A DNA stretch of 62,506 nucleotides, filler included, from 6 parts of 6 records of this genome joined end to end with filler, not necessarily neighbours in it; one strand, 5' to 3'. Positions 8,580-53,846 are shown, counted from the first letter of the whole stretch. The notes: generated by a model not told the origin, from the sequence alone. Program-made: numbers and translations.

Positions 8580-8605
8580 TAACTTTACAGCTTAAATTTA
8601 ACAAT

Positions 8606-8648
8606 AAAAACAATCTTTTGCTTATTTTAAGTAAGAGATTGTTTTTTT
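8606..8648 (+). terminator. intrinsic terminator
   Basis: AAAAACAATCT...AGATTGTTTTT stem with T tract just after the kinase stop. Confidence 0.65.
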
Positions 8649-8885
8649 ATTACTTATATTTTTAACTTGAATTGGCATCATTATCAGGTATAATATGATG
8701 AGGTAGCTCCATTTGAAATATTTGATTTTACCGGATATATATATGCTATGGCAGTTAGTATAGACGAGGAGGATGAAAGTTTGCCTTATCTGTAATGAAA
8801 ATGGAAGAGACCCTCTCTATAAAGAGATAGAAAAGGGCCTAGAAAAAGTTAAAAGAAAGGATTTGAACTTAACAGACAGTAAATT

Positions 8886-10010
8886 ATGCCAAAAGAAAGG
8901 ATATTAATTATGCAGAAAACAATGGGGGATATGGCTAAATTTTTGAAACAATTAATACCAATGAGTATTCCTGAAAAATACTCAATTAAGCCGATGTTTC
9001 GTGAGATATCAGTTGAAGAAGATATAAGAAACGGAGTTAGTGCTTTTAGAGATTTTATGTATAGGCTTTGCGACTGCTTAATTTCAGATGAAGAGCTGTC
9101 TAATATAGTTCGAAAAGGTAAGAAAAAGAATGCTGATGAAATATCCTTGTCAGTAGAATTTCCATTTCTAAATAATATTAGAAGTATATTTATAAACATA
9201 GGATATTACGGTATTCTATCAGAGCAAGGTGATTCTCTAACAATAGTAGACTGGGATAGATTTAGAAGGCAAAAGTCACTTAGTAAAAATTCAAGAACAA
9301 AAATATCCAATACGCAAATGTTTAAAGCTATGCGTTTTTTAAACAAACTGGGTATTGAGTTTGATGGAATTGATTTAAATGTGAAGAAACCAGATATATC
9401 GGAAATTAAAACAATTAAAATGAGCTATCCTGATTCTCCAAATATGCTAACAGCAATAAAAACTCTGGCTATTGCTGAGAATGAATTAGCAAATCGTAGC
9501 AATGACTATATATTAATGAGATGTGATTATAAGGTACTAAAAGATGAAGAAAATGAAGATGAGTTAGTTTTAGAAGAGTTTAATTTTCCACTATCACAAA
9601 GCTTGCAAAACTTTGTATGTAACTTTCATAAGCATGCTATAGACGCAGGGATGCAATGTAAAATAGAGTTAAGACAATTATGTATTAATTTTATCTATTC
9701 ATATAAACGTAAAGATATATTGAGGTTCTCTAGTTCTTTAATAAATGATTATCGTGTAGTTTTCAAAACAAAAAATACTGATAATTATCCTGACGTTATT
9801 GAGGGGTTTCCTGAGTTTCTGCAAGAAAGAATAGCAAAAGGTTATGGATGTGACAGAAAAGCTGGTAGTGGTCACGGTAGTTGCCTAAAAGGCTGTGAGG
9901 GTTTTAGTTTCTCATTGAATGAATCTATAATCGATATAGCTGAGGATTTAAAAATTTGGCTGGATAGTGAGTTGTCAAGTATGCAGAAAAAAAGAAAGAG
10001 TAGAATTTAG
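8886..10010 (+). CDS. hypothetical protein (likely start MQKT at codon 9)
   Basis: 374-aa ORF with normal composition and a C-terminal GYGC..C..GC motif; no recognised domain. Confidence 0.75.
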   Translation: MPKERILIMQKTMGDMAKFLKQLIPMSIPEKYSIKPMFREISVEEDIRNGVSAFRDFMYRLCDCLISDEELSNIVRKGKKKNADEISLSVEFPFLNNIRSIFINIGYYGILSEQGDSLTIVDWDRFRRQKSLSKNSRTKISNTQMFKAMRFLNKLGIEFDGIDLNVKKPDISEIKTIKMSYPDSPNMLTAIKTLAIAENELANRSNDYILMRCDYKVLKDEENEDELVLEEFNFPLSQSLQNFVCNFHKHAIDAGMQCKIELRQLCINFIYSYKRKDILRFSSSLINDYRVVFKTKNTDNYPDVIEGFPEFLQERIAKGYGCDRKAGSGHGSCLKGCEGFSFSLNESIIDIAEDLKIWLDSELSSMQKKRKSRI

Positions 10011-10022
10011 TTTTATTTACTT

Positions 10023-10070
10023 TATATATAGGGCAGACCTCCAACGGTCTAGCCCTATATATATTTTTTT
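10023..10070. terminator. bidirectional terminator-like hairpin between convergent genes
   Basis: TATATATAGGGC-AGACC-loop-GGTCT-a-GCCCTATATATA followed by a T run. Confidence 0.7.
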
Positions 10071-10460
10071 TTACGCTTGTTCGACATGCTTAAAACAATC
10101 AATACTGTGATTATTCATTATACCTATAGCTTCCAAGTATGAATAAGTTGTTACACTTCCCATGAATTTAAAGCCTCTCTTCTTCATATTCTTTGTTACT
10201 CTGTCAGAAAGCTCATTTTTAGTAACAGGGGTATTATTTCCTATATAGACAATTTTATTATCTGTAAATGACCAGATATAATCACGAAAAGTTCCGAACT
10301 CTTTCTGAATTTCCAGGAATCGTTTAGCATTATTTATATTTGCTCTAATCTTCTTTTCATTTCTCACTATTCCGGCATTCTGCATTAATTTCTGTATTTT
10401 ATCTTCATCATAGTGTTGAATTATCTCAGCTTCAAAATTATCAAAAGCTTTTCTGAATTC
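10071..10460 (-). CDS. tag: DNA-3-methyladenine glycosylase I, 5' end cut by contig edge
   Basis: Frame open to the contig edge (FRKAFDNF..); motifs GIVRN..KI, MKKRGFKFMGS, GIMNNH..C. Confidence 0.9.
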   Translation of the reverse strand, partial: EFRKAFDNFEAEIIQHYDEDKIQKLMQNAGIVRNEKKIRANINNAKRFLEIQKEFGTFRDYIWSFTDNKIVYIGNNTPVTKNELSDRVTKNMKKRGFKFMGSVTTYSYLEAIGIMNNHSIDCFKHVEQA

Positions 10461-10560
10461 NNNNNNNNNNNNNNNNNNNNNNNNNNNNNNNNNNNNNNNN
10501 NNNNTTAATTAATTAANNNNNNNNNNNNNNNNNNNNNNNNNNNNNNNNNNNNNNNNNNNN
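10461..10560. other. artificial contig-joining spacer
   Basis: N44-TTAATTAATTAA-N44, stop codons in all six frames. Confidence 0.98.
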
Positions 10561-11115
10561 AGATAATAAAATCCCGAAAATTCCTAGATGATAAAATTGA
10601 AGTGAAATTAAAGTGCAACATATTATTAAAATAGAATTGCATACACCATATATCATAAATTTCGTTGGATTGTTAAACGCTCTATAGACAGATAATAAAT
10701 TTAACTGAATTACTTTAAATACAGAAATAAAATAGCATATAATTAAGTAGGCGGTTTGAAATCCATCAAGAAACTTTTGAAATAGTTGTGTGATAATAAT
10801 TAAGAATACGGGAAATAATGTAATTGAAATAAATAATGATACTACTAAGCAAGATCCAATTAATAATCCTATTTCTCCAGATTTTTGAAATTCATCCTTG
10901 AATCTTACTAAAGCATCTCTCATACCAAGGTTAATAAAGTGAGTAGTAAGCTGAATTGTTACTAAATATATTGCTAACATTCCATATTCAGTATTGCTGA
11001 GAAATGCTAAATATATTGGTATCAATAAAAAAGAAGTCGCTCTTATCCCAATATTTCCAATCGAATATATTCCTGCATTTTTATATAGGTTCTTTATGCT
11101 TAGTGAATTTTTCAT
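10561..11115 (-). CDS. wzx: oligosaccharide flippase (Wzx family), 3' end cut by contig edge
   Basis: N-terminal KNAGIYSIGN..FLLIPIY..LS..EYG pattern, multiple TM helices. Confidence 0.8.
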
Positions 11116-11121
11116 ATCAAA

Positions 11122-12303
11122 TTAACTTAGCGCTCTAAATATCTCAGCCAATTTTAACCTTTCTTTTTCCCAACTTAATTTTTCAAATATAGAATACGTG
11201 GCATTTATTAATTCGTTCTTTTTAGCAATATTAAGGTGATAATAATGTAATAATGATTCAGAGAGTGAGTAATAGTTTCCTGGTTCAAAGTACAATATGT
11301 CAGTATCTTTAAAATAATCTCTTATCCCTTTTGTTCTCGGAACAACAACTGGTGTTTTCATAGCAGTATATTCGAAAATCCTCGTTGGGAAATTCATTTC
11401 TGTAAATTCGTCCAGTTTGTTTGGTATTATTCCAATGTCGGATTCCGTAATTGCTTTTCTAATTAACTTTTGATCAACAAATCCATGGTAAAAAACAACA
11501 TTATTAATATTAAGCTTATTAATCATTTTTAACATGATATTAACAAAATCACCGTCTCCATAAATATGATATTCCACATCACAATCAATAAATTTGATCA
11601 CATCTTTTATAGCATATAAAGAATCGATTATACCATGCCTCTCAAAAATTGAACCATGAAACATAATTACAAACTTTGATCTATTATGTATATTAGATTC
11701 AACTGATGAAAATGACCTTCTGGTAGGAGTATTCATTACTATTTTAACTTTATTATATAAACAGGACCTTCTAGCGAATAATTCCTTAAAAGCTATATTA
11801 GGAGTAATAACGATGTCAGATACTTTTATGGACAAACGTTCTATTAATAAAAGGATTGTATATATAATCAAACCATTCCTTTTTTTAAACTTTGAAAGAT
11901 AAACTTCCGGTGTTGGATCATGCATATCTAACACTATTTTTTTTCCTAGTATTTTTGGAATTATAGCTATAAATACTAAAAAGTCTGGCATATTATGGAC
12001 ATGAATTATGTCATAATTATTTTTGGCATTATAATAATTAAATATTATAAACAATTTTATTAAGAAAAGAAGATATTCTATGAAATAATCTATAATATTT
12101 CCACGTTTCTTTTTGCTATAGATACTATATATATTTACATTGTTCAAATTTTCTACTGGACTATCAATATTTCGTTTCCCAAGGCAAAAAACGTCAACAA
12201 CATAACCCAATGATGACAATTCTTCAGCTTCTCTTTTCGGTCGTGGATCTTGACGGTAATAAGAGTAAATTATTGTGGCAATTCTTTTATTTCTACATTT
12301 CAC
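11122..12303 (-). CDS. glycosyltransferase family 4
   Basis: D.R..REA start, HVHNMPD, FHGSIFERHG, PTRIFEY; GT-B pattern. Confidence 0.88.
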   Translation of the reverse strand: MKCRNKRIATIIYSYYRQDPRPKREAEELSSLGYVVDVFCLGKRNIDSPVENLNNVNIYSIYSKKKRGNIIDYFIEYLLFLIKLFIIFNYYNAKNNYDIIHVHNMPDFLVFIAIIPKILGKKIVLDMHDPTPEVYLSKFKKRNGLIIYTILLLIERLSIKVSDIVITPNIAFKELFARRSCLYNKVKIVMNTPTRRSFSSVESNIHNRSKFVIMFHGSIFERHGIIDSLYAIKDVIKFIDCDVEYHIYGDGDFVNIMLKMINKLNINNVVFYHGFVDQKLIRKAITESDIGIIPNKLDEFTEMNFPTRIFEYTAMKTPVVVPRTKGIRDYFKDTDILYFEPGNYYSLSESLLHYYHLNIAKKNELINATYSIFEKLSWEKERLKLAEIFRALS

Positions 12304-12352
12304 GCAACTATAAACCTCATATTAATAAATTTTATAACATACTTCAATATTT

Positions 12353-13057
12353 TTATTCAGTTAAAACTATTATTGAAAACCCTCCTAACAATCGAACTGC
12401 AATATCATTATTTAATTTATATAGTATTTTTCGCGGTATTTTCATTAATTTTGGCTTAAGTCCAGAGTATGTTAGCTCAAACATTCTTTTAGTATAAAAA
12501 AAATCAATTATATTATGACCTGAATCTTCTAACGTTTCTAAAGCAAGCTCTTTATTAAAATAGTGAATATGACCAAACTCTTTACGACATTTAATAATTG
12601 GTTTGATGCGAAATAGTGACTGCACAGATAAATCTAAAGGTATGTGGAATATTTTTAGATTTCCAATTAATTTAATTCTTCTTAAAAAATCATATATATT
12701 TTCTACATGTTCTATTACATCTATCGCCATTACAACATCATATTTTTCTTTAACTTTATCTTCAAATTTTCCTAAAACAAAATTAATACCACAACTATTT
12801 CTTTCTAAACATTTATTATATGCAAATGATGATATTTCATATCCCGTATATTCAATATTATTTGAGTAATTTCTATGTAATTGAAAAAGTATTTCTCCAG
12901 ATCCACATCCTATTTCACAGATACTAATTGGGTGTATCATATTTCTTTTCAAAATATAAACTATCTGTTTTGCTTTCCAGGCAGAATGCTCCATGTGCAT
13001 CGAGACATTTCGCTCGTAATATTTATTGCTTGTATATAGATTCTCCATTAGCGTCAC
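12353..13057 (-). CDS. class I SAM-dependent methyltransferase
   Basis: EIGCGSG motif I, DVIEHV, GHIHYF. Confidence 0.88.
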   Translation of the reverse strand: MTLMENLYTSNKYYERNVSMHMEHSAWKAKQIVYILKRNMIHPISICEIGCGSGEILFQLHRNYSNNIEYTGYEISSFAYNKCLERNSCGINFVLGKFEDKVKEKYDVVMAIDVIEHVENIYDFLRRIKLIGNLKIFHIPLDLSVQSLFRIKPIIKCRKEFGHIHYFNKELALETLEDSGHNIIDFFYTKRMFELTYSGLKPKLMKIPRKILYKLNNDIAVRLLGGFSIIVLTE

Positions 13058-13064
13058 TTTTTTA

Positions 13065-13949
13065 TTATTTTTTTTTAATTAAAGATTTCAATTTTATTAT
13101 TTGCCTGTTTCTAATATATTCTAAATATTTTTTATCTATCAATATCTTTTCCTTTTTATAATACAATCTAAAATAACCTAAAATCCTATAAATACTACTC
13201 AATAATACAGGTTTCTCTAGTATCCTTTTAATATTTTTAGCAATTTCATATATAGGATGATATCCTATAGAATAGTCTCTTTTACCTAATTTAAATCTTG
13301 CTGTTAATACATTCTGACCCGTAGATCCTGACATTCTATGGTGAAATGCGATCAGGTCCTTATTAGGACTTACTTCCCACCCATGATACTCAGCCATACA
13401 GTTGGCCATTGTATCTTGGCCGCCATATTTCAATATTCTTAATCCGCCAATTTCTTCGAAACATTTAACTCGAAATGTTTGCACAGCCCCTGCAACCCAA
13501 TCATCAGAATTATACTCTCTTGGAGCGAATACTCCTTTATTTTTTTCGAATATTATACCCCCAGTGACACCTATTTCGGGTTTTTTCTTTAAAATCATCA
13601 GCAATTCATAAAAGTAGTTAGAATTGATTGTTATGTCTGCATCTAGAAACCCTATAAAGTCATACATTGTGTAGTTAATGCTACTATATCCATAAATTTG
13701 AGACTTAACCATATCTTCCATACTACCGATGTTTTTTTCTGGTTTTATTATTGCTTTTATAAATGAATGCTTCTTTGAATATTTTAATATTATTTCTTTA
13801 GTATTATCACTAGATCCATCATCTACTATTACCCATACAGAAGGCAATATCGTTTGGTTTAAAACTGACAATATTGTTTGTTCTAAATATTTGTCTTCAT
13901 TAAAAGCTGTAGTTATTAGTACGTATGTAGGCTTATATATCTTTTCCAT
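13065..13949 (-). CDS. glycosyltransferase family 2
   Basis: VDDGSSD and LDAD (DxD) motifs. Confidence 0.9.
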   Translation of the reverse strand: MEKIYKPTYVLITTAFNEDKYLEQTILSVLNQTILPSVWVIVDDGSSDNTKEIILKYSKKHSFIKAIIKPEKNIGSMEDMVKSQIYGYSSINYTMYDFIGFLDADITINSNYFYELLMILKKKPEIGVTGGIIFEKNKGVFAPREYNSDDWVAGAVQTFRVKCFEEIGGLRILKYGGQDTMANCMAEYHGWEVSPNKDLIAFHHRMSGSTGQNVLTARFKLGKRDYSIGYHPIYEIAKNIKRILEKPVLLSSIYRILGYFRLYYKKEKILIDKKYLEYIRNRQIIKLKSLIKKK

Positions 13950-15250
13950 TATCTTAAATACACTTTTTTTGGATTAAAGATTAAAAAATAAAATATGAAT
14001 AATATTGAAAAGGAATTAAGTCTATTAGCTAGAAATGGCTCTGTTAACAAACAAGGGACAAGTATTATTGTTGTTATTTGCATATAATGAAGCGAAATTA
14101 AATTCATTTTATTATCGTTTAATTTTTTCATTTTAATAGTATTCTTAATCGTATTATAAATAATTAGGAATAGCACAATAAGGCCGACTAAACCACATGT
14201 TAGAGTAATTTCTAGAAAGGTATTATGACAATGAGCTGGAAAGAAATCCATGTAAACATTACTATTCAATATTAAACGGCTTACTCCGTAACCATAACCA
14301 AATATTAAAGTGAAGTCTAACAACAATATTTTATCTAATGCAATGCGCCAAATATCTGTTCGCCCTGTCATTGAAAGTATTGTATCTAACTCTTGGTTTC
14401 GATTAAATAAATTAATTATTTGTATAACCGTGTCATTATCATTTACTCCTAATATTATAGTTGCAATTAAAATACTACATATTAGGGGGATTAAAAATAA
14501 CATCACATTCTTATTTTTATAATACAAATAAAGAAAGAAAGATAAGCATAAACAAATAATCGATATACGGCTTCTTGATAGGCAAACTACAGTTACAAAT
14601 ATAAGCCTTAATGACATTATAACTATTTTATTAACAATAAACGACCAATTTTGAAAAGATAACCAGAATGCACAAATCGACAATAAACTAATTTCAGTTG
14701 CATGCGTCACGCCCATACCTAGCCTCGAAGGCTCAGAAGACAACATTGTGTCACTTATAAAATGATTGTAGAAAGAAATCGAAGAGTCTTTAAGTATTAA
14801 GATAACTATAGTAAAAAAAATCCATTTTTCAATGACTACTATATCATTTATAGAAACTACATTTTTTAATGAGAATATCAAAAATATGCAATAACCAAAT
14901 ATTAATATAAAATATCCTATTATTGCAAAGGAATATTCTGAAAAGATTGAAGACAATAAGATAGATAATAAATAACATATTATCAATTTATCATGTTTAT
15001 TTAATACAATATTATGCTTAAGTTTTGAAATGTAATACAATCCAACAACAATACCAATCCCACTAACGATTAATCTTAACATTATCAATAAGTCAAAACT
15101 TGGCACGTCAGTATTATCTCGTATTCTAAAATAAGTTCCAAAAAGAATGAGGAACAAACATATCATTGCTGAGATGAATCCTACTGATTTATTATGACTT
15201 GCATTGAACATATTTCTATCATTTAAAATTATCAGGTATTTATATATCAT
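13949..15250 (-). CDS. wzy: O-antigen polymerase/ligase (Wzy_C family)
   Basis: Many TM helices; SRSR, TGR..IW, GYGYG, HCHN motifs. Confidence 0.8.
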   Translation of the reverse strand: MIYKYLIILNDRNMFNASHNKSVGFISAMICLFLILFGTYFRIRDNTDVPSFDLLIMLRLIVSGIGIVVGLYYISKLKHNIVLNKHDKLIICYLLSILLSSIFSEYSFAIIGYFILIFGYCIFLIFSLKNVVSINDIVVIEKWIFFTIVILILKDSSISFYNHFISDTMLSSEPSRLGMGVTHATEISLLSICAFWLSFQNWSFIVNKIVIMSLRLIFVTVVCLSRSRISIICLCLSFFLYLYYKNKNVMLFLIPLICSILIATIILGVNDNDTVIQIINLFNRNQELDTILSMTGRTDIWRIALDKILLLDFTLIFGYGYGVSRLILNSNVYMDFFPAHCHNTFLEITLTCGLVGLIVLFLIIYNTIKNTIKMKKLNDNKMNLISLHYMQITTIILVPCLLTEPFLANRLNSFSILFIFYFLIFNPKKVYLR

Positions 15251-19294: not shown

Positions 19295-19394
19295 NNNNNN
19301 NNNNNNNNNNNNNNNNNNNNNNNNNNNNNNNNNNNNNNTTAATTAATTAANNNNNNNNNNNNNNNNNNNNNNNNNNNNNNNNNNNNNNNNNNNN
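19295..19394. other. artificial contig-joining spacer
   Basis: N44-TTAATTAATTAA-N44. Confidence 0.98.
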
Positions 19395-37429: not shown

Positions 37430-38245
37430 TATAATGAACTGCAGAAATAATCACTCGATCTATTGTTATTAATTGAAAAACAGGTCATAATATTAGTGGG
37501 TGCTTCTTATGAAAATTTTATATCCAGATTTATTGAAAAAATGTATTGTTGAAGAAAAAAATCCAAAGATAAAAATTAAACTCTTATGTTTAAACGCTGT
37601 TTCTAATGGCATCAAAGTTAGAGAAGTTGCTTCAACATTTGATGTCCCTAAACGTACTATTTCTGATTGGAAAAAATATTGGAATGATAACCAATATGAA
37701 GGTTTAGTTCCTACTAAACAACCAGGTAGACCATCAAGACTAAAACCTGAACAATTTAAAGAGTTAAAAAAGTTATTAATAACTCTAAACAAATATTCAC
37801 TACAAAAGATGTTAGAATGTTAATCCAAGAGAAATATGGTGTTCTTTTTTCAATGAATTACGTTGAAAGAATATTAAGGGAAAAATTTAACTTCACTCAT
37901 AAAAAACCATATATTATTCCTTCTAACCCCCCTGAAAATGCAGAAGAAATTCTTGAAGAAAGATTAAAAGCAACAATAAATCATTTAAAACAAAATTCTA
38001 ACTTTGATGTAAGAAAATTAGCAATAGGTTTTATTGATGAAAGTAGTTGTCAGAACACTTCAAATAGTGTTAAGTTATGGAGTTCGATAAAGAATCCAAA
38101 GTTAGTTAAAAATCCAGAAAAACTAAAAGCAAATACAATCGGTTATTATAGCATTATTGGTAATAGTACCGGAGAAATCATAGAAGATTCTACTAAAGAA
38201 ACATTAAGTAAATTTTTAACTAAAATTAGAGATAAAAATACCGAG
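37430..38245 (+). mobile_element. truncated IS630-family element (ORFs 37500-37823 and 37817-38317 joined by a -1 frameshift); boundaries approximate
   Basis: HTH with W...W...Y.GL...PGRP.RL; winged-helix-like FTTKDV..LI.EKYGV; first catalytic Asp in GFIDES; A_AAA_AAG at 37766-37772; second D and E motifs absent. Confidence 0.85.
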
Positions 38246-38332
38246 TTTGATAATAAGTCAATAATTTCTATTTCTGTAACTCTACTACTCATAATTTTCA
38301 CTCACCATCTTGTTTAATAATTGAACGATAAT

Positions 38333-38404: not shown

Positions 38405-38504
38405 NNNNNNNNNNNNNNNNNNNNNNNNNNNNNNNNNNNNNNNNNNNNTTAATTAATTAANNNNNNNNNNNNNNNNNNNNNNNNNNNNNNNNNNNNNNNN
38501 NNNN
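38405..38504. other. artificial contig-joining spacer
   Basis: N44-TTAATTAATTAA-N44. Confidence 0.98.
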
Positions 38505-40130
38505 CATGGCGTTTTGCATCTCAATGGCGCAGGCGATGGCCCGACTGGCCCTGTCCGGCATCTGCTGGGGGGCGCCAAAGATCACCAAAAGCGCGTCGCC
38601 AATGATTTCATTGATGGTGGCATTGTATTTGAGAAGCACATCGACCATTATCTCGAAGTAGGTGTTAAGGATCTGAACAACCTGTTCAGGTTCCAGTCGT
38701 TCGGCAAGAGACGTGAACCCACGAAGATCGGATATCATGATGGTGACGCTCCGTTTTTCACCTCCAAGGTTCACCATGTCAGGGTTTTCCAAAAGCGTGT
38801 TGGTCACCTCTTCAGAGAGGTAACGGCCAAACATTTCCTTGAGGAATCCGGCTCGCATCCGCTCTGAGAGGTCGTGAACAGAAATAAGTACCTTGGCGCA
38901 GGTTTTCTCATATCCCGGCGGTATGGAGGCCTTCATCAGAACCGTGATTTCCTTCCCCGATAACGTCCTGTTGACACACTGGATTTCAAAGGCCTTTCCT
39001 TCCGCAATGGCCAATACCTGCTCTTTCAGGATGTCATGGGATTTGTTCGTCAGGATTTTGTCAAGGTTTTGTGTCATGGCCTCCTTACTGTCGGCCTCAT
39101 AGAGCCTCAAAGTCGATTCGTTCACGTCTAAGATCTTGATCATATCGGTGCAATTCTTGAGTTCCTCAGGATGATCGTTGAAATGCGCTCTGAAATCCTG
39201 AATCCCTTTGTCTTGCAGCCCATCAATATAGATCTTGACCGCTGAAAAATCCTCCTCCCACAGGGACGTGGGAGAATACTCAAACAGGGCGCGATATCGG
39301 TTGCTGTACTCCTCCAGATCTTTACTCATTTCAACAAAACTGGCCCCAAGTACGCCGATTTCGTCTCTGGAACGGATTTCAATGTCAGATGAGATGGAAA
39401 AATCCCCTTTTGAGAGTTTCCTGGCTGATTCGGTGAGGCGGATAAGCGGTTTCGAGAACCTTGATGACAGGATAAAGACGAGCACAAGACATGCCCCGAG
39501 AAAAAGGAGGGACGTCAGGATGGATCGGTAAACCATCCCTTTTATCTCTTGCCGGATCTGTTTGCGGGAGATCTCTATTTCATTTTCAAGGAGCTTCAAG
39601 GTGTAAACGAGCCTAAGCACGCCCCAGGGTTCCGTGCTGATCTGCAGGGGATTCACGATTTCAATGATTGATTCATCTCCCTCCTTGTATGTCATCACCT
39701 CCACCCTGCTCTGATTCAAGGCCCTCTTGTCGCGCACCCCGGTCAGTTGGGTCTGAATGAGATCAGGCCTATGGGTGTCCATGAACACCGCACCGGAGGA
39801 TTCCATCAGAATAGCGTACTTGATTTCCTCGTTGATCTCCGCGCTTTCTTTGAGGGCCTGCATCACCCCGGACAAGTTGAAGGCGGCCAGGTCGTTTTCG
39901 ATCTGCTTGGAAAGATTGATGATAAAGCTCTTTCCGCGCTCTATGAGGTTTGCGCGCATGAGCGCAATCCTCTCGTTCAGTTCCATCTCCAGGATCTTTC
40001 TTTGGCTCGAGATCTGGGCGTAGGACAATATGGTTACCAGAGCGAACACCAGGAGCGTAATAATCCCCATGAGCTTCCACCGGATGCTCCACCTGACGGC
40101 CTTTTGATCCTTTGTCCCTTTTCCCATCAC
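38505..40130 (-). CDS. membrane sensor class III adenylate/guanylate cyclase (TM, periplasmic sensor, TM, HAMP, PAS, cyclase), 3' end cut by contig edge
   Basis: HAMP (KPL..L...A..LSKGDF..DEIG.L), PAS (RYRALFEYSP.SLWEEDFS), cyclase FGRYLS, SDLRGFT..E, IGDA. Confidence 0.93.
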
Positions 40131-40174
40131 TCTGCAATGTCCCTTTTTTTCCGCCTCTATCGCTTATTCATTGG

Positions 40175-40201
40175 AATCGGTGCAATCTGCGAAATCTGCG
40201 G
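40175..40201. repeat. three imperfect tandem 9-mers (AATCGGTGC AATCTGCGA AATCTGCGG)
   Basis: Visible periodicity in the intergenic gap next to the receptor stop codon. Confidence 0.5.
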
Positions 40202-40202
40202 A

Positions 40203-42356
40203 TCAGAAAGCGTACCGCAATTCAACAAAGAAATTGATCCCCGGCATGGGCAGGTCATCAGGGAGCATCCCCGCGCCGCCTGTATAGGTATACTGTTTGT
40301 TGAAGAGATTAAGGACCGATCCCCGGACCTCAAGACCCTTCAGCTCCTTGAGGAAGTTTTTGGCGATCATTGTGGCGTTCATCAGCACATAGTCTCCAGG
40401 GTCATCCCGAGGGTCATCCTCTGCCCGGGTCCAGCCTCCCCGGTAAAGCAGGTAGGCATTCAGATTGAGATACCGGTTCAGTCGAACATTTGCCTTGAGT
40501 GTCCCTAATCGCTCGGGTTGCAACCAGAAGTGAGTTGTTTCCTGGCCTAGGGACGGAGTCCGCGCTTTCAGGCTCAAATGAGTGTAGTTCATGCCGAGGT
40601 AGGTCCCTCTGCCAAGGTCATATTTCATTTGTAGGGTAACACCTTGACTGGTTTGTTCACCAACGTTCATATGCTTAAAGCTTGGGGGACTGCCTGTCAA
40701 TTCAGGAAAGATGTAATCCTTTGCATTCTTGTAAAAAGCCGTTACCTGTCCCGTAAAAGGAAAGAAGCCGGCCCCAAGACTCAATTCATAGGAGTCCTCG
40801 GTCTCAGGCTTAAGGTTTGGGTTTCCCGTGGCTCGATTATAAAGTTCCATAAAGGTCGGAGCGCGGAAGGCCTTGCCATAGAGAAATTTTGTATTAAAGT
40901 TCCGGGCGAACTCCCAGTTGATCCCCACACGCGGGCTGATCTCGCCGCCGAAGTCGCTGTAATGGTCATACCGGCCCCCTATGGTGAGACGGAGGTCTTC
41001 CATGATATCCCAGATATCTTCCACATAAACGGCCCACACGTTTCTTTTCTTGGTGGGGAAAACATATTCATTCGGATAATCCTGTACAGAGGGAAGAGGG
41101 ATGCACACACCTGGGGTGGATGTTGGTTTGTAATTCGCTTTTGTAGTGATATCGTAAACTTTCTGTTCCTCGAAGGTGATCCCGCCCACAATGGTGTTGG
41201 CGTTCACGATCTCGTATGTGGCCTGGGCCTCTGCGCCCGTACGGCTTTGCTTCATTTCATATTCAACAAATCTGTTTTCCGACGTGATAATCGGCCCTGC
41301 CGGGGTACGAAACCAAGACCCCTTGGGCCAAATCTGCTGGAGTGTCTTATCTGATTCCTGGTTTCGATAGACCTTGGCCATGAGGTCCAACCCTTCGGTT
41401 ATTGTTGCATCATAGCTGAGATTGAGATAATATTGTTGAGTATCCCAGTTGCTCATTTCGTCCAATCTTGGCCAATAGCCAAAGGGCAGATCCTTGTTCC
41501 TGTCAATATATTTTCCGTCAAATTTGAACCCCTTGTACTTCAGGGTCAATTGTGCATCCCATCGATACAAGTCACCCCTCATATTCCCCGGCGCAAGGGA
41601 TGCGTGGGTCCCATATTGCTCATCCAATAAGCTTTGTTGGTCTCGATCCACGTGACCGCGAAAACCGTCCGAAATGCGGTAGTCTAAATAAGCTGCCACC
41701 TCGAGGCCATGAAAGGTTTTGCCAAAGAGCACATTTCCCTCCCAGGTGTTGAAGCTCCCACCGCGCCCCGTGAGCTGCAGCCCGTCCACGTCTTCTGCCT
41801 CTTTTGTGATGATATTGATAATCCCGGCCATGGCCCCTGATCCATAGAGGGCGGACGCGGGACCGCTAACAAACTCGATCCGCTTGACATTGTCCAGATC
41901 GAGGGTGGAATAAGATACAATTCCATTTCCATTATAAACGTCATTCACAAGATGGCTGTTGACCATGAAAGAAACCCTATTACCAGCGCCGCCTGAGTCC
42001 CCTCTCACATAGAAGTAGGTTAAACCCTTATACCCTTTCCGGACAAACCATCCCGGGACGGTTTGGACCACATCTGAAAGATATCTTGCCCCCATCTGAC
42101 GGATCTGTTTGTCCGTTACCACATGAATGGTACCGGGCGCCTTCTCTATCCTTTGGGGAATTTTCGAGGGGGTGATGACATAGGTCTCTTCCTTGAGGTA
42201 TTTCAGCTCCTCCTCCAACTCCGCATCCGGTTTGAGGGCGTCTTCCAGGGTTTCTTCAGGAAAAGCGCTGCATGGATGAAGCAGAAAAAGGATCGGTAGG
42301 CATAGGATAACTGCCCAGCGAATCATCTTTGATCTTGAATGGAAGAGTGTCGTCAT
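40203..42356 (-). CDS. TonB-dependent outer-membrane receptor
   Basis: Signal peptide, plug (VIT.SK..Q....AP, RIE..GP.SALYG.GA.AG.INIITK), LTIGGRYD, AFRAPT..ELY, NP.LKPE, C-terminal Phe; AAGGAGGT RBS. Confidence 0.95.
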   Translation of the reverse strand: MTTLFHSRSKMIRWAVILCLPILFLLHPCSAFPEETLEDALKPDAELEEELKYLKEETYVITPSKIPQRIEKAPGTIHVVTDKQIRQMGARYLSDVVQTVPGWFVRKGYKGLTYFYVRGDSGGAGNRVSFMVNSHLVNDVYNGNGIVSYSTLDLDNVKRIEFVSGPASALYGSGAMAGIINIITKEAEDVDGLQLTGRGGSFNTWEGNVLFGKTFHGLEVAAYLDYRISDGFRGHVDRDQQSLLDEQYGTHASLAPGNMRGDLYRWDAQLTLKYKGFKFDGKYIDRNKDLPFGYWPRLDEMSNWDTQQYYLNLSYDATITEGLDLMAKVYRNQESDKTLQQIWPKGSWFRTPAGPIITSENRFVEYEMKQSRTGAEAQATYEIVNANTIVGGITFEEQKVYDITTKANYKPTSTPGVCIPLPSVQDYPNEYVFPTKKRNVWAVYVEDIWDIMEDLRLTIGGRYDHYSDFGGEISPRVGINWEFARNFNTKFLYGKAFRAPTFMELYNRATGNPNLKPETEDSYELSLGAGFFPFTGQVTAFYKNAKDYIFPELTGSPPSFKHMNVGEQTSQGVTLQMKYDLGRGTYLGMNYTHLSLKARTPSLGQETTHFWLQPERLGTLKANVRLNRYLNLNAYLLYRGGWTRAEDDPRDDPGDYVLMNATMIAKNFLKELKGLEVRGSVLNLFNKQYTYTGGAGMLPDDLPMPGINFFVELRYAF

Positions 42357-42391
42357 AGTGCACCTCCTTTCGTATATATGCCAGAGGGAAC

Positions 42392-43306
42392 CTATTCAAT
42401 GATCCGGTTGACCACGCTCAGGGCCATCTCCCCATATTTCAGGCCGTACTCATTGGCTTTCTTCAGGTTCAGGATAATGTGAGAACCCGCGGGAAGCTGC
42501 ACCTTCTTTTTCACCACGTCACCGGATAGTACCTCACGGGATATGGCGGCCGCCTGCCGGCCCGTGGTCGGGTTGTCAACGGAGACGATTAACACGGCCC
42601 CATATTCAGCAAAAGCATCGTGGTAGGATAAGATGGGTTTCTTATGGACATCACACTGTTTAAAGAGTTCTATCAGGCTATCTTTATCTGACATGACCAC
42701 GGGGTCTGATATGAGCCAGAGTGCGTCGATTTCACCCAGCAAATCCTTGAGCGCCGGAAGGGTATCCCTCCTTTTGGACAGAGACCTTCCCGTGATCTCG
42801 ACCCCCATCTCCTTGGCCGCTTCCCGGGCCGTGTTGAACCAGTGTTTGTTATATTTTTCGCTGTAGAGCACTCCGATTCTCTTTACCTCCGGAAACATAT
42901 AGCGATAGAGGGTGATCTCCATTTCCGGGTTGAGTTCGTTGGATACGCCATAGGTCTTTTTGGCCGCGGGCAGGCGCCGCCAGTTGATAATGGAGGAAAA
43001 GACGATGTTCCTTTCGCTGATATATTTGTTGGCAAGGAGATACGCCTTTGTCCCGATGCAATAGACCAGGTCCGGATATTCATCGTAGAGCAGGTCTTCG
43101 ATCTCCGTGAGCTTCCATTTCTTTGCTCCTAAGTCAATTTCCACAATCGGGCTTGAAATAGACTCCCTGAATTCCTCCTGGGCCACTCTGTATTTATCCA
43201 CCGAGGCATTGGAGTTGATGAGCATAATCTTTGGCCCTTCATCGGCAAATAAAATGCCGAGGAGGAGAATCAGAATCAGAAAGCATATGAGTTTAAAGGT
43301 CTTCAT
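42392..43306 (-). CDS. ABC_sub_bind-like periplasmic binding protein
   Basis: Signal peptide; P.VKRIGVLYS, DALWLISDP.V, GA.L....D....GRQAA, NLK.A..YGL. Confidence 0.8.
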   Translation of the reverse strand: MKTFKLICFLILILLLGILFADEGPKIMLINSNASVDKYRVAQEEFRESISSPIVEIDLGAKKWKLTEIEDLLYDEYPDLVYCIGTKAYLLANKYISERNIVFSSIINWRRLPAAKKTYGVSNELNPEMEITLYRYMFPEVKRIGVLYSEKYNKHWFNTAREAAKEMGVEITGRSLSKRRDTLPALKDLLGEIDALWLISDPVVMSDKDSLIELFKQCDVHKKPILSYHDAFAEYGAVLIVSVDNPTTGRQAAAISREVLSGDVVKKKVQLPAGSHIILNLKKANEYGLKYGEMALSVVNRIIE

Positions 43307-44179
43307 TCAGCCCTCCAGTTTGGATCGGTCCGATGCATCCAGCTCCTGCCAGCCGTCCAGCCCCAACATCCTGATTTTTTTTCTGCCATCGGAATCCATG
43401 GACATGTTCTTGATCATACCCACCATTTTCTTCCGGTTTGCCGTAAAACCTTGAGGCAACGCCACGATCAGTAGAAGGGTCTCCTCACCCTCTGCCAGGA
43501 CTTTCATCTTCCTGTAAAGCCCTGGATTTATCCCTCTTAATTCATCGAAGGCGTTCCTGGAGGCAAAGGCCAGTTTGGCCATGCCAAAACCCACGGACAT
43601 GAGGGCGTCGATATCTTTTGGCACGGTCAGTACCCTGAAAGGATGTTCGACATATTTTTTAAGCATCCGTTTGAGGACGCTGACGGTATACTGAAGACTG
43701 CTGGCCGATGCGATGAGTCCGGGCTTGGCGGCAGCAATATCCGGGGCCTTTTCATCCGCCACCAGTATTTTCCTCTGGTATTTCTTTCCGTTCCGCACAC
43801 CGGTCAGGGCCGGCATGAGGGAATATTCCTTGTGGATGTGGCGATAATGCCAACTGGAAAGAAGCAAAAGGCAGTTTTCCTTGCCTTTCACATGTTTTTC
43901 GAAGACATCCCTGGCACTGAAGGGCTGGAATTCGTAGGGGCCGAATCTGGAGAGGTATCGGTCAAATTCCATCTTGAGGGATTTGAAGTTGTTGATGTTG
44001 GTTTCGGAGCTGTAGAAATAGATCTTGATCTTGCCTTCACCCGAAGAAATCACACAGAAAATCGCCAGGCCTATAAGGAGAATGGCTGTCGCTGAAAGGA
44101 AAATTAAGTATCGTCTATTTTGATGGCCGCCGTTTGTCATATCATCAAATACATTTGGATGGAGGGTGGTTCCATACAA
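43307..44179 (-). CDS. PhnD/SsuA-like periplasmic binding protein (alternative start 44140)
   Basis: N-terminal hydrophobic helix; VPKDIDALMSV.FG..A motif, C-terminal G...I.MLG.DGW. Confidence 0.6.
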   Translation of the reverse strand: MYGTTLHPNVFDDMTNGGHQNRRYLIFLSATAILLIGLAIFCVISSGEGKIKIYFYSSETNINNFKSLKMEFDRYLSRFGPYEFQPFSARDVFEKHVKGKENCLLLLSSWHYRHIHKEYSLMPALTGVRNGKKYQRKILVADEKAPDIAAAKPGLIASASSLQYTVSVLKRMLKKYVEHPFRVLTVPKDIDALMSVGFGMAKLAFASRNAFDELRGINPGLYRKMKVLAEGEETLLLIVALPQGFTANRKKMVGMIKNMSMDSDGRKKIRMLGLDGWQELDASDRSKLEG

Positions 44180-44284
44180 ATTACCGCAGGATTCTATGTC
44201 CGCATTTTGGACATTTTACTTAGACTCCTTACCTCATGGTTGGGTATCAGAGCTCGCCTATGTGCCATTCATCCTACAAATCCT

Positions 44285-44337
44285 AAACAAGAAAAGCCGA
44301 ACTGCATTGACGTGACCTTGACGTTGTCACACTCGGC
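44285..44337 (-). terminator. riboswitch expression platform (terminator overlapping the aptamer 3' end)
   Basis: GCCGAG-UGU-GAC...GUC-aau-GCA-g-UUCGGC followed by UUUUCUUGUUU. Confidence 0.6.
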
Positions 44338-44445
44338 AGCCCGGCTATCTTTTGGAAACAAGATACCTTGAATGGGGTCGACAGGATATATTAAGACCCG
44401 TGGCTTTCCGTCCTCATCTCACGATGGGTTTGGCCCTATATAGAA
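44328..44445 (-). ncRNA. c-di-GMP-I (GEMM-I) riboswitch aptamer
   Basis: Minus strand reads GGGCCAAACCCAUC-GUGA-GAUGAGGACGGAAAGCCACGGGUCUU...AAGAUAGCCGGGCUGCCGAG: AAACC, GNRA-capped P2, GACG(C/G)AAAGCC junction and AGCCGGGCUGCCGA 3' end match the GEMM-I consensus; lies in the operon leader. Confidence 0.88.
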
Positions 44446-45000
44446 AAAGATTTGAGCTCCCAACAGGCAAACTATGCCCCATTGGGAGTAGGCATATGCA
44501 TTTTGAGGCGTTCTTTCATAAGGTAACCTCCTGAGTAGAGGTTGGATGGTTGGTTGGAATCCTACAATTAAATGATGAAACGGTAAAAGACGGCTTCTGT
44601 CAAGAAAAATCGACTGCCGCAACTTCCCTGGAACCAGTTGAGTCGACGATCAAGGCCCTTTTGGCTTGGGCGGAAGTTGAAAAGTGCATCGGCGGAAATA
44701 ACTGAAAATTTTCGAGGTCCGTATCCCCGAATCACATGCCCCATCTTAATGCGGCGGTATGCACGGGGTTTTCCCCCTTCCAGCCGCGGTTTTGAAGACG
44801 CTTTTTCCACCGAATAAAAGGGACTGAAGAAAGTGCCTTGAACGTACCGGAAAACCCCTTCTTTTCCACTTAAAGACAGGGGCTTTCCATACTTTAAGCG
44901 TCAGTCGGCATCCCACCCATTGCGGATCAAAGTAAAGCCTTCTTTCCAGACTTCGTCCAGGGTAGGGGATAAATCCCTCCAGATCCGGGTGGCAGCGGCC

Positions 45001-45100
45001 NNNNNNNNNNNNNNNNNNNNNNNNNNNNNNNNNNNNNNNNNNNNTTAATTAATTAANNNNNNNNNNNNNNNNNNNNNNNNNNNNNNNNNNNNNNNNNNNN
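45001..45100. other. artificial contig-joining spacer
   Basis: N44-TTAATTAATTAA-N44. Confidence 0.98.
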
Positions 45101-45121: not shown

Positions 45122-46891
45122 TTATATAAAGTAATTTAAATCATCATTTAATTTTTCAACTAATTGATTCAAGTCAAATATTGTATCTTGATTTGATAAA
45201 AGTGCCGTTTTAATATTATTAGAAACTTCTGTTGTTTCCGTACTTAAACCTTCTATTTCAGTGGAATTATCAGTGATACCACTAATTGCAATAGTTATTT
45301 CATCCGAAGCCAGTAATTGCTCATTTAGCGAGATCGAAATCTCCTCTATCTCTTCACTATCTTTTGTTGTATACTCTGTGATTGTTACTATATCACTTTC
45401 TACAACAGCAGATAACTCTATTCCTTTTTCAACTTTTTCTTGAACTATACTACTATTTTCATTTACTTTATTTACTTTTATCTGAATATCATTTATCAGT
45501 TCCGATATTTTTTCAGTTTCGGCATTAGTTTTCTCGGCTAATTTTCTGATCTCATCTGCTACCACAGAAAAACCTCTTCCGGCTTCTCCTGCACGGGCTG
45601 CTTCAATAGCAGCATTCAAAGCCAGTAAATTCGTTTGTTCAGATATGCTGTTTATTGTAGTAATTATATCTCCTATATTATCTGAAATATTTTTAAGTTT
45701 TTCTATCTCCTGATCTGTAATATTGACACTCTCTTTTATATTCCACATGCTTTCTTTCATAGTGTTAATATTTCTCGTACTGCTCTCACTAACCTTCAGT
45801 GTTTTATCAAAAGAATCTTTTGTTCTGAATACACCTTCACTGATTAATTTAATAGTTGCCGCAATCTCCTCTAACGCTGCTAAACTCTGTTGTGAAGAAG
45901 CTGTTTGATCACTGACATTATCCAATATATTTTCTATCGAAAAATTCAAATGAACAACACCCTTTTCTACCATTAAATCCATAGCTGAATAATGTTCACT
46001 TTTTTCTCCGTTAATTAATATATCAATGGATTTATTTAATAAGTCATTTGACGAAACCACTTCAACAGATAAATCTTTAATGTTATTTAGTACATTACGG
46101 ATTTTTGATTGAAATAACCTAAAATCATTAGCCAACTCTCCTATTTCATCTTTAGAATTAATTGAAAGCTCATGGCTAAGATCTCCATTTGAAAACATCT
46201 TAATATTCTCTTGAAGTAAATTAAGAGATTTTGTAATTAATTTTCTAAATCCGAAATCAAACATAACTATTGCAATAATTAGTATTATTAATGCAAATAC
46301 AAGCATGAAACTTAGCGTACTTCTTAAAATTCTATTTCCGGTTTCCATAGCCAAACTCTTATCAATTCCTATAAAATAGATTCCTATTACTTCACCAGCT
46401 TCATTATTAATAGGTGTGTAATTTGTAAAATATGGAAAACCCAATATACGCGCCTCTCCGTTATATACTTTATTATTCATTATAGGTTTATACGCAGCTG
46501 AATATTTCCCTAAATTAGTTCCCACTGCTCTTTCACCATCTGCTGTTTTTATGTTTGTCGCAACTCTATAAAAATCATCTTTTTCTTTTTTAAATATAGT
46601 TACCACTGTTCCCAATTCTTCCGCTACCTTGTCAACTAAATAATAGTTATCTTTAACAGCTCTGTTTTTAGAGCCCAATAATTCGCCGTCTACCAGATCT
46701 AATTCTCCATAATAATCATTAATATACATTCTAAAAGAATTCAAATCCCCGTTAATTTTCTCCTGATATAAGTCTTTCGAAAGTGTAGTTACCAATTTAA
46801 GCGACCTGTTCGTTACAATTAACATCATCGATACTAAAAAAATCATAAATAAAACTGTTATAAATAGCGTCATTTTTGTTTTTATCTTCAT
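45122..46891 (-). CDS. methyl-accepting chemotaxis protein with Cache-type sensor
   Basis: TIF....DFYRVATNI...GERAVGT.L sensor motif, HAMP, MA signature. Confidence 0.95.
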
Positions 46892-53746: not shown

Positions 53747-53846
53747 NNNNNNNNNNNNNNNNNNNNNNNNNNNNNNNNNNNNNNNNNNNNTTAATTAATT
53801 AANNNNNNNNNNNNNNNNNNNNNNNNNNNNNNNNNNNNNNNNNNNN
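53747..53846. other. artificial contig-joining spacer
   Basis: N44-TTAATTAATTAA-N44. Confidence 0.98.

Follow-up and report, generated by a model that had tools for sequence, protein, structure and literature searches.

In a 62.5-kb window of DNA, which is the whole stretch that we analyzed, one contig of 6496 bp (positions 38505-45000) is entirely taken up by a locus in which a GEMM-I riboswitch precedes four co-oriented genes, encoding two periplasmic binding proteins (here called SBP1 and SBP2), a TonB-dependent outer-membrane receptor and a membrane sensor cyclase. Our favored interpretation, to which we give somewhat better than even chances, is that the locus is an operon induced by cyclic di-GMP (c-di-GMP) and that it encodes a transmembrane guanylate cyclase whose activity depends on binding proteins. 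According to the proposed mechanism, a high concentration of c-di-GMP would cause the aptamer to fold, the folded aptamer would block a transcription terminator and the operon would then be transcribed. The TonB receptor would import a ligand into the periplasm, where SBP1, apparently tethered to the membrane, and/or SBP2 would bind it and make contact with the sensor at its Cache-like domain. The HAMP and PAS domains would relay the signal, and the cyclase would respond by making cyclic GMP (cGMP). The features of this contig described below all lie on the minus strand.

The leader RNA contains the two mutually exclusive structures that such a mechanism calls for. The aptamer (44332..44444) matches the c-di-GMP-I covariance model RF01051 over its full length, positions 1-87 of 87, with a score of 59.7 bits (E 3.5e-9) against a gathering score of 35, and it is the sole match to Rfam (cmscan) in the entire window. 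An intrinsic terminator, identified from its fold energy and its conservation, forms the expression platform (44285..44346): an outer stem of 11 bp joins 44346-44336 to 44305-44295 and encloses an inner hairpin, and a U-rich run ends at 44285. Folded in isolation, the terminator has a free energy of -27.4 kcal/mol (z -4.25) that none of 200 shuffled sequences equaled, and it is also part of the minimum-energy fold of the entire leader. Its sequence is kept in all four aligned copies, and the 11 pairs are retained in each of the three aligned relatives, with two one-sided changes. The 5′ arm of the terminator is the 3′ strand of aptamer stem P2, as placed by the Rfam alignment, with 44346-44340 and the adjoining bases common to both. 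Consequently, the expression platform competes with the aptamer, only one of the two structures can form at a time and ligand binding should favor read-through; the riboswitch is predicted to be, and probably is, an ON switch. In the window and in the three aligned relatives, a G stands directly 5′ of the P1 pair and a C follows the 3′ strand of P2, which we take to be G20 and C92; if this assignment holds, the binding pocket belongs to the type for c-di-GMP and not to the type that recognizes 3′3′-cGAMP. Pocket roles for G20 and C92, and an A at position 20 in cGAMP-type variants, are described in the part of the published account used here (PMC6140456).

The four genes 3′ of the aptamer are separated by gaps of 0, 35 and 72 nt, and neither Pfam nor a tblastn search with an ATP-binding cassette (ABC) ATPase found an ABC permease or ATPase among the genes of the contig. 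A preliminary description of this DNA had proposed the GEMM-I aptamer, the four co-oriented genes with these same gaps and the absence of transporter genes, and had suspected that the operon might run past the edge of the contig; all of this stood up, including the edge, which cuts the cyclase gene at 38505, at residue 542 of about 776.

The first gene (43307..44140) encodes SBP1, a protein of 277 residues whose PhnD fold was recognized through Pfam, an AlphaFold2 model and Foldseek. We prefer the ATG at 44140 as its start codon, which gives a length of 277 residues like that of the homologues; the open reading frame (ORF) as called starts with a TTG at 44179. The Pfam match to Phosphonate-bd reaches 19.5 bits, under the cut-off of 27. 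The AlphaFold2 model, built from a 37-sequence alignment, has a predicted local distance difference test (pLDDT) score of 90.5 and a two-lobed fold, preceded by a long N-terminal helix at residues 5-33, a hydrophobic segment that in this model is probably a membrane anchor. Compared with the PDB by Foldseek, its nearest folds are, in order, ArrX (6x8w, E 3.5e-16), AioX (6esk), PtxB, BstB, XAC2383 (5ub7, E 8.3e-14) and PhnD. Residues E46, K56, S95-S96-W97-H98 and D178 are invariant or near-invariant. SBP1 is best regarded as a sequence family of its own: an exhaustive profile search returned 184 representative clusters at E <= 1e-30 and 1117 at E <= 0.001, among 1.84 billion, and its homologues are all named 'hypothetical protein' by their sources. 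Two apparent fusions were set aside as evidence of partnership. One (P0286, 564 residues, SBP1 plus SBP2) carries the SBP2 signal peptide in mid-protein and is probably a read-through artefact, and the other (P0335, Plug plus SBP1) is likewise doubtful; the longer proteins that were searched with the SBP1 alignment yielded no SBP1 fusions, which is weak evidence.

The second gene (42392..43306) encodes SBP2, a periplasmic binding protein of the ABC_sub_bind family (PF04392, 83.4 bits) with a signal peptide. Its only named relative is TrpX, a tryptophan-binding protein, whose NCBIfam model it matches at 65.7 bits, with a cut-off of 390, and its profile matches in the PDB are the uncharacterised entries 3lkv and 3lft. 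The third gene (40203..42356) encodes a TonB-dependent outer-membrane receptor of 717 residues, with a Plug domain at residues 71-179 and a barrel (TonB_dep_Rec) at 257-684. These are its only Pfam domains, and it has no N-terminal signaling extension. No specific NCBIfam family reached its cut-off for the receptor; the best, TonB-hemin, scored 177 bits against 317.

The last gene (38505..40130) encodes the membrane sensor cyclase, in which a transmembrane helix, an sCache-like domain, a second transmembrane helix, a HAMP domain, a PAS domain, an FGRY motif and half of a class III cyclase domain follow one another up to the end of the contig; full-length relatives (90% identity) have 776 residues. 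Pfam recognizes the HAMP domain, a weak PAS domain and Guanylate_cyc (PF00211, 45.4 bits over profile positions 6-90 of 183), and the full cyclase domain of the homologues scores 92-99 bits. An AlphaFold2 model of the N-terminal 290 residues (pLDDT 81.7) consists of a helix, an alpha/beta PAS-like domain, a second helix and the HAMP domain; Foldseek finds its matches in the extracellular parts of WalK, of CitA and of further Cache/PAS-like sensors, and the model suggests a single Cache-like periplasmic domain, at residues of about 41-200. In the same HAMP-PAS region, the window's cyclase is without seven residues, or one heptad, of the helix that joins the two domains (residue 271, about 39320). 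The heptad is present in all 17 aligned homologues that cover the stretch, whatever their output domain, and its loss could be a natural variant that alters signaling or an assembly slip between short repeats.

The catalytic domain resembles that of Cya2 from Synechocystis PCC 6803. We compared the catalytic domain of the orthologue in the related locus L002 with the PDB by phmmer, which gave E values of 1.6e-64 for Cya2 (2w01) and 4.2e-72 for 6fht, a construct based on Cya2; no other natural family came closer than E 2.5e-31. Within the window, the FGRY transducer element lies at residue 434, both metal-binding aspartates are present, Asp 468 (SDLRGFT) and Asp 512 (IIGDA), and Glu 508 ('INEIIGD', codon 38609-38607) aligns with the Glu of Cya2, where 6fht, an E488K construct, has a Lys. 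The second base-specifying position, past the end of the contig in the window, is a Gly in the homologues, as in Cya2; the transition-state Asn and Arg also lie past the contig end, and the homologues have both ('GVNMTSR'). Wild-type Cya2 acts as a guanylate cyclase, the E488K exchange turns it into an adenylate cyclase, FGRY is a conserved transducer-element motif and Cya2 carries an uncharacterised C-terminal extension, according to the portion of the study used here (PMC5995499). Because of the two specificity residues and the close homology to Cya2, the predicted product is likely to be cGMP; the preliminary description, which had assigned a class III cyclase making cAMP or cGMP, was right about the class, and its choice of product narrows to probable cGMP.

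A domain of about 120 residues follows the cyclase domain in the homologues P0005 and P0011 (residues about 655-776), in a region that in the window would lie beyond the contig end. PilZ (PF07238) matches at 22.1-26 bits, around the cut-off of 22.5, in two of the four cyclase-type homologues (P0005 and P0011; not P0029 or P0046). We considered and rejected the idea that the enzyme binds c-di-GMP through PilZ: of the c-di-GMP motifs of PilZ, RxxxR and D/NxSxxG, the first is absent and the second is degenerate by eye, and the Atlas lead is only 0.82.

We now turn to the related loci, which show what the genes of this operon are associated with elsewhere. One scan of genome contigs with SBP1 supplied 41 loci, which were annotated by tblastn with the window's proteins, by Pfam on the flanking ORFs and by NCBIfam for the ABC genes of L002. 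Pfam was applied to 250 of the 298 unassigned ORFs of at least 90 residues that lie from -5 to +10.5 kb of SBP1; the omitted 48 are the farthest flanks of L023-L041, and a tblastn search of the whole loci with an ABC ATPase covers them for transporters only. SBP2 follows SBP1 in 36 of the 41 loci, and four of the five others are cut just after SBP1; in the fifth, L040, SBP1 is followed at once by the sensor. The module is accompanied by a TonB receptor, lying downstream, upstream or divergent, in 27 loci. A sensor with the same N-terminal domain occurs in 21 loci, and its output is a cyclase in four (L002, L004, L005, L006), a histidine kinase in five (L007, L012, L033, L034, L040), a chemoreceptor in four (L010, L015, L019, L037) and a PP2C phosphatase in five (L021, L024, L025, L026, L030); the remaining three sensors are cut ahead of the output domain. 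In the sensor-domain tree, the output type changes at least six times, with the cyclase rows, including that of the window, forming one clade (100/98) and the chemoreceptor rows another.

Transporter genes are nearly absent from these neighborhoods. The whole-locus tblastn search, whose query was the ABC ATPase of L002 and which reaches to within about 10 kb, found an ABC ATPase only in L002 itself, and among the 250 flanking ORFs the Pfam families ABC_tran and BPD_transp_1 also occur only there. We do not regard the ABC genes of L002 as the missing transporter: they are of the polar-amino-acid (GlnPQ-like) type, they lie upstream of the promoter and the riboswitch, and they are found in one locus of 41. 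Two expectations that the preliminary description had attached to homologous loci can be answered from this survey. Permease or ATPase genes beside the module, which it had named as grounds for abandoning its proposal, are confined to that one locus, upstream of the riboswitch; and the conserved partners that it had anticipated, a receptor together with a cyclase, kinase or GGDEF protein, are borne out for the receptor (27 of 41), the cyclase (four) and the kinase (five), with chemoreceptors (four) and PP2C phosphatases (five) added to the outputs.

These observations lead us to describe SBP1, SBP2, the receptor and the Cache/HAMP region of the sensor as a portable input module, widespread among uncultured bacteria, which this lineage joined to a guanylate cyclase and to c-di-GMP control. 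A broader generalization, which we put forward tentatively and hold to be distinctly less probable than the operon's own mechanism, is that the loci belong to a widespread 'import-to-sense' module, in which the receptor would take up its ligand for sensing rather than for nutrition, the pair of binding proteins would report to interchangeable outputs and a Desulfacyla-like clade would have acquired a riboswitch-licensed cascade from c-di-GMP to cGMP. Across 19 loci, identity to the window in SBP1 correlates with identity to the window in the sensor domain (Spearman 0.69); we discarded this as evidence of interaction, as it reflects shared descent.

Several of the related loci have features of their own. 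In the PP2C loci L021 (13876-16532) and L030 (12127-14513), a DUF6272 gene comes after the phosphatase, as does a SiaC-family gene in L021, so that a partner-switch cassette of a Sia-like kind stands behind this input module. L004 has an additional SBP2 paralogue, which shares 66% identity with that of the window, between the receptor and the cyclase (14099-15013). Upstream of the module in L037 (4547-6095), a HEARO RNA (158.8 bits) lies beside an RRXRR/HNH ORF, an IscB-like mobile element. Finally, L014, L016, L020 and L023, which are of the Desulfobacterales type and have no adjacent sensor, carry a response-regulator/NMT1_2 fusion upstream of SBP1 on the opposite strand; L014 and L020 also have a CHASE3/HBM-type chemoreceptor nearby, and L016 a CheA-like kinase, neighbors that hint at another downstream partner.

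The riboswitch is much less widespread than the module. In an Rfam search of all 41 loci, GEMM-I was found in three, L001 (53.6 and 45.9 bits), L002 (59 bits) and L041 (57.4 bits), in each case immediately 5′ of SBP1, and these three are close relatives. L001, from Candidatus Desulfacyla euxinica, has two tandem copies of riboswitch, SBP1, SBP2 and receptor (4187-8680 and 9834-13889); the copies flank a BrnT-like toxin gene, and a frameshift splits the first of the two receptor genes. Other sequences of the leader are also shared among the carriers. A short upstream ORF of 15 codons (44472..44519), read from the sequence, ends 27 nt before the aptamer and has a strong GGAGG ribosome-binding site at about 44527-44531. 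Counterparts of 12 codons with the same core (L-K-M/L-H/Y-M) stand in the same place in L002, L001 copy 2 and L041, and no counterpart is present in L001 copy 1; the window's ORF is three codons longer, with the usual TAA stop lost. It may be a translated leader peptide or a conserved RNA. Farther upstream, a TTGACA hexamer resembling a -35 element (44598..44603) is conserved in the window, L002, L001 copy 2 and L041; the promoter scan did not call it, because no good -10 follows and what -10 there is is weak.

Binding proteins that signal are already known, and what is new here is the full layout. The binding protein AioX and its orthologues constitute the first component of a signaling system, in the portion of the work cited (PMC5908839), and the AioS kinase has an sCache-like ligand-binding domain, as given in the sections used here of a 2021 review (PMC8050422). 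AioX-AioS-AioR and the ArrX/ArxX systems, which sense arsenic oxyanions, likewise place a signaling-only binding protein of the PhnD fold (PF12974) beside an sCache-like sensor, and their general layout, in which a binding protein adjoins a membrane sensor and cognate ABC permease and ATPase genes are lacking, is also that of the window's operon; 21 of the 41 loci have the sensor, and one has an ABC ATPase. Their output is a histidine kinase, whereas here it is a class III cyclase, and here there are also a second binding protein of another family, a TonB receptor and an RNA switch. XAC2383, one of the structural matches of SBP1, is a PF12974 protein too, and reportedly pairs, in XAC2383-XAC2382, with a diguanylate cyclase, in place of the class III cyclase found here.

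In its presumed mode of action, the operon most resembles AioX-AioS, NspS-MbaA of Vibrio cholerae and, going by what is reported of it, XAC2383-XAC2382. In NspS-MbaA, and also in ScrB-ScrC, an orphan binding protein is likewise encoded beside a transmembrane second-messenger enzyme, and there controls it; nspS expression rises with c-di-GMP. However, NspS and ScrB belong to the SBP_bac_8 and SBP_bac_3 families, the sensors are dCache-like, the output is GGDEF-EAL, there is no TonB receptor and the sections of the review on which this comparison draws mention no riboswitch (PMC8050422). The receptors driven by binding proteins that these sections list are chemoreceptors, kinases, GGDEF/EAL enzymes and Ser/Thr kinases, with no class III cyclase among them and no mention of TonB (PMC8050422). 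Cya2 shares with the window's cyclase and its homologues the same Glu and Gly, the FGRY before the catalytic domain and a C-terminal extension after it, but its input is a CHASE2 extracellular domain in the part of the report used (PMC5995499), whereas here it is an sCache-like-HAMP-PAS sensor with companion binding proteins.

Two other families of systems share single elements with this locus. TonB-dependent transducers of the FecA type work with extracytoplasmic function (ECF) sigma and anti-sigma factors. As here, an outer-membrane TonB receptor is genetically linked to a signaling protein of the cytoplasmic membrane; unlike there, the link in our proposal would run via soluble or tethered binding proteins, the receptor has no signaling extension and the contig holds no sigma or anti-sigma genes. 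Other GEMM-I riboswitches fit the same full-length model and have the same terminator-type platform, and the regulated genes here are new for the class. The conserved short ORF with its strong ribosome-binding site ahead of the aptamer is a further difference. In the literature searched, which did not extend to subscription journals or bioRxiv supplements, we found no instance of the layout (an ABC_sub_bind or PhnD binding protein, a TonB receptor and a Cache sensor), and, by title or abstract start, no pairing of a c-di-GMP riboswitch with a guanylate cyclase. The earlier assertion that no characterised system has this layout is thus upheld for the layout as a whole, and overstated for signaling through binding proteins, in view of AioX-AioS and NspS-MbaA.

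Several findings weigh against the proposed operon mechanism. In the leader, the terminator stem shows no compensatory pair among the three aligned relatives, and the mapping of the two pocket bases onto the Vc2 numbering is tentative. For SBP1, neither candidate start codon has a good Shine-Dalgarno sequence, and the sequence falls outside the AioX/ArrX/ArxX family, with a profile E of 0.005 over 88 residues and 12-18% identity. The Pfam names of both binding-protein families mostly refer to transport, and the PDB hits with Cache-like domains usually bind small ligands directly, so that a binding protein is perhaps unneeded. The cyclase's catalytic Asn and Arg and its second specificity-determining residue are visible only in the homologues. 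Among the related loci, five of the 27 receptor matches are weak (23-29% identity) and are perhaps receptors of unrelated families. No fewer than 11 loci (L009, L013, L014, L018, L020, L022, L023, L027, L029, L032, L036), including Kuenenia, Holophagae and the cultured strains Acanthopleuribacter pedis and Desulfonema magnum, have the SBP pair, with or without a receptor, but lack a homologous sensor beside it, so the pair can function where no sensor is adjacent. The riboswitch is absent from L003 and L004, whose SBP1 proteins are 82% and 79% identical, like those of the carriers, and whose upstream intergenic spaces are about 110 and 75 nt long. Since only three of the 41 loci have the riboswitch and these two close relatives lack it, c-di-GMP control is, as read from the sequences, a recent, clade-specific layer on an older module; the switching by c-di-GMP that was proposed earlier is backed by an aptamer with its terminator, and applies to a lineage rather than to the module at large.

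The chief rival to the operon mechanism holds that the genes form an uptake system whose inner-membrane transporter is encoded elsewhere, and that the sensor is a co-regulated bystander that binds its own small ligand. It takes up three of the points just made, the naming of both binding-protein families for ABC transport, the 11 or more loci in which the pair has no neighboring sensor and the dominance of directly ligand-binding domains among the sensor's fold matches (CitA with citrate, DctB, Tlp3), yet it must account for the 40 loci of 41 without an ABC ATPase within about 10 kb, for a sensor domain found beside the pair in 21 of 41 loci from several phyla, with its output exchanged at least six times, and for the nearest folds of SBP1, which are signaling-only proteins. 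The contig itself has no permease or ATPase that would mark an ABC importer, and among the 41 loci only L002 does. We consider this rival unlikely, though better placed than the others. The earlier suggestion that the binding proteins serve the sensor and not a transporter accordingly fares well where the same sensor domain travels with the pair and its outputs are swapped, and less well at the 11 or more loci without an adjacent sensor.

A second rival keeps the layout and changes the messengers: the cyclase would make cAMP or a mixture, and/or the aptamer would also sense 3′3′-cGAMP. Full-length relatives are indeed named 'class 3 adenylate cyclase' or 'adenylate/guanylate cyclase', the prediction of specificity uses just two residues and GEMM-I variants with a single base changed bind both dinucleotides, in the portion of PMC6140456 used. 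However, the Glu and Gly are those of Cya2, in which a single Glu-to-Lys change makes an adenylate cyclase (PMC5995499, as far as used here), all five aptamers fit the c-di-GMP-I model and all four aligned ones have a G, not an A, before P1, so that we judge this rival improbable, less probable than the uptake system.

The third and least probable rival is ligand-independent periplasmic regulation of the kind described for YfiR-YfiN: SBP1 and SBP2 would hold the sensor on or off according to the state of the envelope, and the receptor would have a structural or anchoring role. That SBP1 is apparently tethered by helix 5-33, as would be fitting for a partner held in place next to a membrane sensor, and that no ligand can be named for SBP1 or SBP2 speak for this rival, but SBP1 has a closed set of invariant and near-invariant residues, as in a ligand site, the plug and barrel of the receptor are intact and the sections used of the review on binding-protein signaling describe ligand-dependent cases (PMC8050422), and we set it aside as quite improbable.

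The setting of the locus is limited by the assembly. The window joins six contigs through N44-TTAATTAATTAA-N44 spacers (10461-10560, 19295-19394, 38405-38504, 45001-45100 and 53747-53846). The G+C content of the focal contig is 49.7%, against 26.6-37.5% in the other five, and because of this difference the focal contig may be mis-binned or foreign in the assembly, from another organism than the contigs beside it. The closest relatives of its proteins are in metagenome-assembled genomes named Candidatus Desulfacyla euxinica, Desulfatiglandales and Desulfobacteraceae. An apparent end of the cyclase ORF at 38457 is an artefact of a reading frame that runs into the spacer, the true contig end being 38505. 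An IS630 fragment (37817-38317), a chemoreceptor (45122-46891) and sugar-transferase genes were rejected as gene context, since contig boundaries separate them from the focal contig. The IS630-family transposase at the end of the AT-rich neighboring contig (37500-38317, plus strand) is divided into two overlapping ORFs (37500-37823 and 37817-38317), and is therefore probably frameshifted. Upstream of the leader, the focal contig holds the 3′ end of another gene, 32 codons and a stop read by frame translation (44903..45000) and cut by the contig end, which has no similarity to any compared locus; the blastn and tblastx matches start only at about 44615. A terminator-like hairpin with a T run (44711..44731), a pattern match from a consensus scan, probably terminates this upstream gene.

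If the operon works as proposed, class III (guanylate) cyclases would join the receptor types that are driven by periplasmic binding proteins, and a function would be at hand for a binding-protein family that every source calls 'hypothetical'. The TonB receptor would feed a sensor rather than a transporter. To our knowledge, cGMP signaling is almost unstudied in sulfate-reducer-like bacteria, and in these organisms the operon would be a direct wire from c-di-GMP to cGMP. This one input module serves four types of output, so that identifying a single ligand would account for many systems together.

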